Shown here piece after piece: positions 10,904 through 53,482 of a DNA stretch of 64,000 bases. Below the pieces are notes generated by a model that saw only the letters and a list, made by a program, of their open reading frames with translations, made no database searches and was not told where the DNA came from. Position 1 is the first letter of the stretch; every line of letters begins with the position of its first letter. Origin of the DNA: Candidatus Cloacimonadales bacterium. Lineage in GTDB: Bacteria; Cloacimonadota; Cloacimonadia; Cloacimonadales; JAIOQZ01. Both the position numbers and the translations under genes were made by a program. Location: positions 224,001 to 288,000 of the forward strand of contig CAXXTU010000002.1 of NCBI GenBank assembly GCA_963662655.2, given 5' to 3'.

Positions 10904-10925
10904 GCGGTATCGGCCATTCCTTACC

Positions 10926-11107
10926 GGCGTGGCATCTTCGCCCGATCGTGCCGCTCCAACGTGGATATAGCACGTCCGATTATCCACTAACATGATTTCG
11001 AGGAACGAAATCACAACGTTCATGTTTTCGTTTTGACTTTGTCAAAGCCGAAAATCAGATGTGCAACACCACGTCTCCGCGGCAGATCGAACGAATCTGC
11101 TCACGCC
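10926..11107 (-). repeat. Long-hairpin intergenic element, copy 1 (candidate structured RNA or ssDNA element)
   Basis: Arms GGCATCTTCGCCCGATC-N12-CGTGGATATAGCAC ... GTGCAACACCACG-N11-GATCGAACGAATCTGC shared with 22305-22483 and 53341-53466; strand inferred from G-U pairing. Confidence 0.85.
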
Positions 11108-11135
11108 TTGAAGTATAATGAACAATGGAGGAATT

Positions 11136-22062: not shown

Positions 22063-22107
22063 TTTTTGTGCCCGGATTTTTTGAATGCCCCTCTGCTTGA
22101 ATCCATT

Positions 22108-22263
22108 TTGTCTGAATCAGGACTTGCGGGATTAGCAAGATTTTCAGGAAGGAGAGCGACGGCATCTTTTGTTCTATCTTCCGCATTCTTCATTCAGTGT
22201 ATCATGCCTTTCGCGAAGGGCTTGTCTGAATCAAGATTAACTGGATTAACGGGATTTACATGA
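22108..22263 (+). repeat. Two 42-nt direct repeats with internal 9-nt periodicity
   Basis: TTGTCTGAATCAGGACTTGCGGGATTAGCAAGATTTTCAGGA (22108-22149) and TTGTCTGAATCAAGATTAACTGGATTAACGGGATTTACATGA (22222-22263). Confidence 0.75.
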
Positions 22264-22304
22264 TGGGGAGAGGAGAGACTGAGAGAAATTTTCTCCTCGA
22301 TCAC

Positions 22305-22483
22305 GCACCTTCGCCCGATCCTTCGCTCCATCGTGGATATAACACGGCTCAAAACGCTCTTGTAATCATTCGATATCAGTTTATCAAGCCTGAAAATGTT
22401 CTATTGTTCCCGGCGTGGGATAAGCATCCGCGCGTTTATCACCGTGTAACACCACGATTCCGCTTGCGATCGAACGAATCTGC
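22305..22483 (-). repeat. Long-hairpin intergenic element, copy 2
   Basis: GCACCTTCGCCCGATC-N11-CGTGGATATAACAC ... GTGTAACACCACG-N11-GATCGAACGAATCTGC. Confidence 0.85.
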
Positions 22484-22549
22484 TCTGGATGGATGTATGA
22501 AAGAAAGGACGAGATTGCGCTCGTCCTGGAAGATTTTAGAGATGAAAGA

Positions 22550-53321: not shown

Positions 53322-53340
53322 TGGCGTCCGCTGGCATACC

Positions 53341-53466
53341 GGCGCGGCATCTTCGCCCGATCTCCCTTTTCAACGTGGATATACCACATCATTGGGACTA
53401 TCGAGCGCAATAAAACGATGTGGAACACCACGTTGAAAAGGGAGATCGAACGAATCTACTCCCGCC
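53341..53466 (-). repeat. Long-hairpin intergenic element, copy 3
   Basis: GGCATCTTCGCCCGATCTCCCTTTTCAACGTGGATATACCAC ... GTGGAACACCACGTTGAAAAGGGAGATCGAACGAATCT. Confidence 0.85.
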
Positions 53467-53482
53467 TCTCAACGAATTGCAA

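Follow-up and report, generated by a model that had tools for sequence, protein, structure and literature searches.

Most bacterial hairpin repeats have been read as RNA or tied to RAYTs. The closest described systems to the repeat reported here are REPs and REPINs, CGTC repeats, integron attC sites, the ends of IS200/IS605 elements, and clade-specific hairpin repeats such as bcr1. For two of these, an orientation relative to the replication fork has been described: IS608-type insertion takes place with the active strand on the lagging-strand template (PMC5027513), and the bottom strands of attC sites lie on the leading-strand template in large chromosomal integrons (PMC5371416).

The repeat, hereafter family A, occurs in a 64-kb window (the whole stretch of DNA analysed) of a Candidatus Cloacimonadales genome, G000, and in three congeners (G001, G002, and G003). 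Its folding strand is the one on which its mismatches read as G·T and G·A. As far as REPs and REPINs are described in PMC3116915, PMC6006769, and PMC3733652, family A resembles them in being non-coding, ~100–200 nt long, intergenic, and high-copy, in forming a long hairpin with conserved ends, in the compensatory changes of its variable stems, and in its mosaics with other repeats. Relative to REPINs as described there, it differs in that its arms are complementary halves with fixed mismatches instead of two inverted REPs, in its strong replication polarity, in lacking a flanked RAYT gene, and in lacking the GT[AG]G or CGTC tag: GT[AG]G stands at the stem foot in 4/112 copies on the folding strand and 1/112 on the other, and CGTC in 12/112 copies on the other, non-folding strand. 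Like the CGTC repeats as these are described, family A has no known dedicated transposase.

With attC sites, in the account of PMC5371416, family A shares a fold on one strand only, extrahelical bases, a variable terminal loop, and a folded strand that is the leading-strand template, whereas its copies are dispersed singly, in both orientations, with no cassette array and no IntI, its boxes lie 11–12 paired bases apart, and its primary sequence is much more conserved. The ends of IS200/IS605 elements, as presented in PMC5027513, are likewise single-stranded DNA hairpins with mismatches, no target duplication, and a fork-tied orientation. However, the polarity of family A is opposite, if the better-folding strand is, as we infer, the active one; it forms one long hairpin instead of two end hairpins; G000 has neither TnpA nor TnpB; and no fixed tetra- or pentanucleotide target was found beside the copies, the commonest flanking 6-mer occurring in 10/118. 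Compared by description only (PMC3184786), bcr1 and other clade-specific hairpin repeats are similarly clade-restricted, ~130–155 bp long, compensatorily changed, and at non-conserved sites, but bcr1 comes with direct repeats of 5 bp, and its cruciform fold has been interpreted as RNA.

Family A is a new variant of REPIN-like repeat that lacks the defining marks of REPs, attC sites, and MITEs. It is real and ordinary in kind; what is unusual is its polarity and its missing partner. Three linked signals, namely DNA-type folding, a near-strict polarity opposite to that of IS608, and an association with gene-order breaks, make it a clean system, within the scope of one uncultured genus, for studying the persistence of orphan repeats without a known transposase and a possible control of their orientation by fork asymmetry. 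If its enzyme is not a RAYT, it would represent a new single-stranded DNA-processing activity.

Copies in the window and across the genus

A covariance model built from 47 copies, window copy 3 among them, found exactly three family A copies when applied to the whole window, scoring 131, 96, and 70 bits on the minus strand, which is the folding strand of all three, and only 51, 25, and 16 bits on the plus strand:

10922..11110, minus strand: family A copy 1, long type with a nested family B unit (covariance model, 95.7 bits)
10980..11055, minus strand: family B unit within the loop of copy 1, with two small hairpins
22295..22493, minus strand: family A copy 2, with a degenerate outer stem and a unique 100-nt interior (70.2 bits)
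53337..53469, minus strand: family A copy 3, of the commonest type, its middle stem continuous (131.4 bits)
53347..53362, minus strand: left half of the outer conserved box of copy 3, with tandem T·G and G·A/A·G on the folding strand
53377..53387, minus strand: left half of the inner conserved box of copy 3, with a bulged T, G·T, and T·T on the folding strand
53420..53429, minus strand: right half of the inner conserved box of copy 3
53444..53460, minus strand: right half of the outer conserved box of copy 3, bulged A included

Copy 1 is flanked by plus-strand genes, a TPR gene on one side and a flavodoxin-like gene on the other; copy 2 occupies the convergent gap between a tRNA and flgH, and copy 3 a convergent gap on the 3′ side of an amidohydrolase gene. 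A further short repeat is present twice at 22100-22270, between the tRNA and copy 2. The first-pass annotation of the window had given coordinates, lengths, arms, and a shared orientation for the three hairpins, all of which proved correct. It had placed two of them 3′ of minus-strand operons; copies 2 and 3 are indeed found 3′ of minus-strand genes, in gaps that are convergent in both cases. The interiors it had called unrelated are so only in the case of copy 2, since copy 1 holds a family B repeat and copy 3 has the commonest interior, and its notion of a three-copy element was wrong.

Arm profiles run across G000 identified 126 two-armed copies, no two of them identical and 125 outside the (heuristic) gene calls. 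These occupy 54 convergent, 62 co-directional, and 10 divergent gaps (convergent gaps: 54/126 for family A vs 222/1743). By blastn, family A was detected in 3/3 congeners and in 0/37 other relatives. The covariance model likewise matched all three congeners, with at least 34 matches in G001, 39 in G002, and 63 in G003, antisense duplicates counted in; these are lower bounds because 150 candidates were scored. The same model gave no match in two genomes of the same family, and no family A was found outside the genus in a 151-genome sample of the phylum, where 22 candidates were scored per genome under strict filters, so that divergent relatives could be missed. Exact-pattern scans yielded 0 matches in viral sequences, 0 in both of two metagenome scans, and 51 in genome contigs, with the second arm present only in the 17 Cloacimonadales ones. 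The four genomes together hold more than 230 natural variants, and 111 extracted copies make up the congener set used below.

That the hairpins match no known family, as first proposed, agrees with an Rfam scan in which the window returned only two tRNAs at gathering score and the hairpins only generic miRNA-hairpin matches of at most 34 bits, far below thresholds. No description of family A was found in searches of the open-access literature; the supplementary repeat tables of PMC6006769 or PMC3733652 could bear on its novelty.

Architecture and strand-specific folding

Read on the folding strand, family A is a rod. A variable 6-bp outer stem is followed by a bulged A, three pairs, and a G·A/A·G step; then come the outer box with its tandem T·G, a variable middle stem of ~11 bp, the inner box with a bulged T, G·T, and T·T, and finally an inner stem and a variable loop. 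The irregular positions are the constant ones: the tandem T·G pairs are kept in 100/118 copies, both guanines of the G·A/A·G step in 110/118, and the bulged A in 105/118. The middle stems, by contrast, comprise 97 distinct sequences among 112 and fall by a rough rule into 62 that are continuous, 27 with a GNA/GGA loop, and 23 with neither. Between close pairs of G000 copies, likeness reaches beyond the boxes by ~13 nt on the left and 11 nt on the right, and the ends are ragged, the outermost stem being the variable part of the element.

Pairing is maintained across this variation. In the 47-copy alignment, 92.1% of cells pair (75.5% when shuffled and 31–46% when slid) and 31/48 pairs have changed on both sides; these figures are not probabilities, given that the copies are kin and themselves the source of the structure. 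Where variable stems of equal length depart from pairing, the folding strand shows G·T 23 times and A·C 6 times. This strand is the more stable in 111/112 copies folded as RNA and 106/112 folded as DNA. Among the window copies, copy 1 and copy 3 had minus-strand RNA folding z-scores of -9.0 and -11.2, respectively, and copy 2 folded whole as DNA was weak (z -1.7). The compensating changes and the conserved minus-strand mismatches and internal loops noted from the three window copies extend to the family, and the proposal that selection acts on the fold of one strand is supported.

We suggest that the fixed mismatches are read by a protein, because neutral correction of a palindrome would erase mismatches too. 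Recognition would rest on the two conserved boxes, which contain non-canonical pairs and are spaced by roughly one helical turn, and the stems would need only to pair. The inner box is TATA-like, but its spacing led us to reject a promoter role.

In many short copies of G001–G003 (e.g., L193:9402, L218:16004), the halves of the inner box are swapped between the arms while the loop and outer box stay on their own strand, which a simple DNA inversion would not give.

A second repeat, family B, is ~76 nt long and has GNA triloops. Of its 59 segments, 29 are nested in family A, each time in the orientation of the host copy (29/29); GNA loops were present in 37 of the 46 hairpins matched among the 59 segments. 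Stand-alone family B forms tandem arrays with periods of 44–92 nt:

G000 C2:606540-606883, C2:772290-772613, and C2:863000-863152 (L013, L014, L015): stand-alone family B arrays

Several stand-alone arrays lie directly against the stop codon of genes for secreted proteins whose C-terminal domain is FlgD-like.

A further repeat, family D, has 37 elements in G000 (e.g., C2:1914625, C2:184661). It is a four-way-junction repeat of 110–200 nt whose inverted ends are GC-rich and which also has a C-GNA-G arm and a perfectly palindromic stretch of arbitrary sequence; it was found only in G000 and on contig C10 of G002. This contig (L206, L207) carries flagellar and other genes absent from the G000 assembly, along with G000-type repeats. 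A 92%-identical family A copy on it was rejected as evidence of horizontal transfer: the contig is likely misbinned from the G000 lineage, because its content includes genes that the G000 assembly lacks as well as the otherwise G000-only family D.

Replication polarity and the search for an enzyme

Replication was mapped in G000 from dnaA at 2.77 Mb (Pfam) and a terminus near 0.85 Mb given by gene-corrected skew, and in G001 from dnaA and its antipode. The folding strand is the leading-strand template in 91/121 copies on the G000 contig C2 (p 2e-8; 88/121 with an initial origin and terminus estimate) and in 31/32 distinct matches of G001. In G000, replication is followed in 47/62 copies in convergent and divergent gaps, and in 13/21 of those in gaps with both genes on the lagging strand. 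Local GC skew, applied to the 87/111 congener copies in loci of at least 5 kb, gave the same polarity in 20/20 copies of G001, 23/26 of G002, and 35/41 of G003, although the four genomes are kin and do not constitute independent tests. Base skew does not explain this polarity, because the strand concerned is C-rich (skew -0.13).

The first-pass annotation had anticipated a RAYT/IS200 transposase or an integron integrase next to the repeat, and neither stands beside any of the copies. Searches of G000 with Pfam, tblastn, and a custom profile found no Y1 transposase, though this genome has the most copies; its assembly misses at least one 38-kb piece. IS110 and DUF559 were also not found in G000, nor TnpB or GxxExxY in any of five genomes (0/5 each). 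The congeners encode 11 Y1 genes, which are flanked by other palindromes and none of which (0/11) has family A or B within ~4 kb. No novel gene recurred among 246 neighbours of the G000 copies or among 326 ORFs adjacent to congener copies, 76 of which lack a close G000 match. In G002 and G003, family A is often part of an oriented mosaic in which the next repeat is of the type flanking one Y1 transposase gene.

Two candidate enzymes were set aside. A reverse transcriptase was rejected as mobiliser, the G000 gene having an internal stop and G001 having no such gene, and an integrase beside the copy at C2:1153446 scored far below the IntI cut-off and reads as XerD, its adjacency being treated as chance. 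The G000 loci concerned, C2:980900-982600 and C2:885100-885350, hold the reverse transcriptase gene with its internal stop and a broken GIY-YIG gene with its own palindromes, respectively; no family A copies were found in reverse transcriptase, GIY-YIG, or DUF559 loci. IS elements, presumably ISL3-like and IS1182-like, lie directly beside some copies (G000 C2:1506071 and C2:3484721; G003 L291:2900), and 3/12 members of the ISL3-like family neighbour family A.

What is observed is a high copy number, covariation, strand asymmetry, replication polarity, turnover of sites between species (see below), and no target duplication. On this basis family A is most probably a mobile repeat that folds as single-stranded DNA, in line with the REPIN-like branch of the original proposal, and the hairpin likely both folds and spreads as single-stranded DNA rather than RNA, by an enzyme not found here. 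This enzyme may have been lost from G000, may be encoded in the unassembled part, or may be too divergent to detect. We would name an HUH enzyme mainly because the G002 and G003 mosaics include repeats flanking a Y1 gene. Polarity, in turn, could arise by a purge: a folding strand on the lagging-strand template would fold and be cut or skipped, and such copies would be lost more often. Precedents for a purge are the attC bottom strands found on the leading template in large chromosomal integrons (PMC5371416) and CTG repeats, which on the lagging template are biased to contraction in most of the systems covered by PMC3310812; that paper also includes one contrary yeast result. The purge is weakened by three findings: no younger age could be measured for copies in the rare orientation (p 0.63), the fold of these copies is only a little poorer than that of the others (p 0.08), and family D, whose triloops are the same, is not polarised (13/35). 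For these two steps, HUH enzyme and purge, we put the chances at even, and for the explanation as a whole slightly better than that.

Alternatively, polarity could be set at insertion, if the folded strand entered as, or into, the nascent lagging strand by Okazaki-like incorporation or flap retention, the agent being an as yet unknown enzyme or host replication and repair. We regard this as an unlikely though tenable alternative. It would account for a folding strand that equals nascent lagging sequence in nearly all G001 copies and for rare-orientation copies that are no younger than the rest, and it is consistent with the lack of any known transposase common to all four genomes, with the tandem arrays formed by the nested family B, and with an inner motif swapped between arms in some short copies whose loop keeps its strand. 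Against this, no candidate gene recurs beside the copies, 30/121 G000 copies lie in the other orientation, mostly in regions of normal skew, and copying by the host only leaves the invariant mismatches unexplained. Equally tentative is the broader idea of a new class of fork-coupled single-stranded DNA element, i.e., a rod hairpin with two protein-binding boxes, mobilised by an enzyme unrelated to RAYT, IS200, IS110, or IntI, entering via the nascent lagging strand, and acting as a joint for gene-order reshuffling.

Site turnover, gene order, and other explanations

G002 and G003 are ~85% identical. Among 28 G003 copies examined, 10 had both flanks mapped in the G002 DNA compared, where 6 sites were filled and 4 empty; another 14 did not map, and 4 lay at locus edges. 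The exact junction is unreadable at the four empty sites because the gaps hold other repeats, and a search by junction revealed no further empty site and no clean insertion footprint. Contigs of three sequencing runs, two of them possibly from the source sample, contained other copies only and no empty site. The regions around window copies 1 and 2 have been rearranged in the congeners, and no copy was present in the nine loci compared. For 31/111 congener copies a flank maps near a G000 copy; among the pairings that could be read, 17 have the same orientation and 14 the opposite, which fits independent insertion. At a tandem pair of GNAT paralogs, one filled and one empty, the difference consists of the element plus one of two 6-bp direct repeats and could be an insertion or a slippage deletion. 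In the congeners, a RAYT with repeats of its own occupies the gap that follows the GNAT ortholog.

Family A also accompanies gene-order breaks. Adjacent congener genes with G000 orthologs are syntenic across 9/67 family A gaps, compared with 149/245 element-free gaps of at least 100 nt, and in co-directional gaps only, across 6/28 compared with 112/171. We read this as an association only, since in many cases the loci had been picked around copies, and since insertion as well as breakage is tolerated at operon boundaries. Under the preferred reading of a mobile single-stranded DNA repeat, copies would gather at operon boundaries and accompany or promote such breaks.

The same breaks could be expected if family A were a host-maintained single-stranded DNA site, either an attC/Xer-like recombination site shuffling gene blocks or a fork-associated signal, which we consider quite unlikely. 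One G002 copy does have as its two flanks sequences that in G000 border two different copies, with orientations that match, and the bulged bases, variable loop, and polarity are attC-like. However, gaps with other repeats are also mostly broken (9/30 syntenic), same and opposite orientations are nearly equal at shared boundaries, and copy number and sites vary widely. The attC core pattern is RYYYAAC/GTTRRRY, and RYYYAAC...GTTRRRY occurred in 0/112 copies on either strand; IntI (TIGR02249) was below cut-off in 4/4 genus genomes.

The other branch of the first-pass annotation, a non-coding RNA or 3′ UTR motif, is not supported. A structured RNA, whether 3′ UTR element or small RNA, whose G·U and G·A pairs are recognised or processed as RNA, seems to us very unlikely, even though the folding strand folds far better with RNA parameters (on average -79 vs -65 kcal/mol for the other strand), copies often lie no more than 40 nt from a stop codon, and tandem G·U, tandem G·A, and GNA/GGA loops are also known as RNA motifs. 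The folding strand is antisense to the genes in 42/62 co-directional gaps, polarity follows replication, and no shared flank able to serve as a promoter was found across copies. In addition, the terminal loops are of a DNA type. They are GAA triloops in place of GNRA or UUCG tetraloops; GNA triloops are unremarkable in RNA, and (GNA)2 forms a DNA zipper. Among the 41/111 congener copies of the short type, the loop is C-GAA-G in 38, C-AAA-G in 2, and T-GAA-A in 1. In DNA, d(GNA) triloops with a C:G closing pair are described as unusually stable in PMC3201870, which also mentions an RNA cGUAg triloop. Overall, the evidence favours DNA over RNA, because of the C-GAA-G triloops, an orientation set by replication and not transcription, and site turnover without target duplication.

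Finally, a classical MITE with the arms as terminal inverted repeats of a DDE transposon is highly improbable and largely refuted: size, intergenic position, copy number, inverted arms, and the 6-bp direct repeat at the one GNAT pair would suit it, but the longest flanking direct repeats are no longer than in shuffled pairs, the outermost stem is variable and the ends ragged, no arm pair encloses a transposase, and a duplex substrate does not predict strand asymmetry.

Composite arrangements were seen at several loci. In G002 and G003, mosaics around family A (e.g., L199:10700-12000, L200:5650-6350) combine several types of palindromic repeat, with a tandem unit of ~430 bp, and at G000 C2:2349467-2349738 and C2:2468382-2468651 a family A copy and a member of a divergent subfamily stand head-to-head, the pair having been duplicated as a unit.
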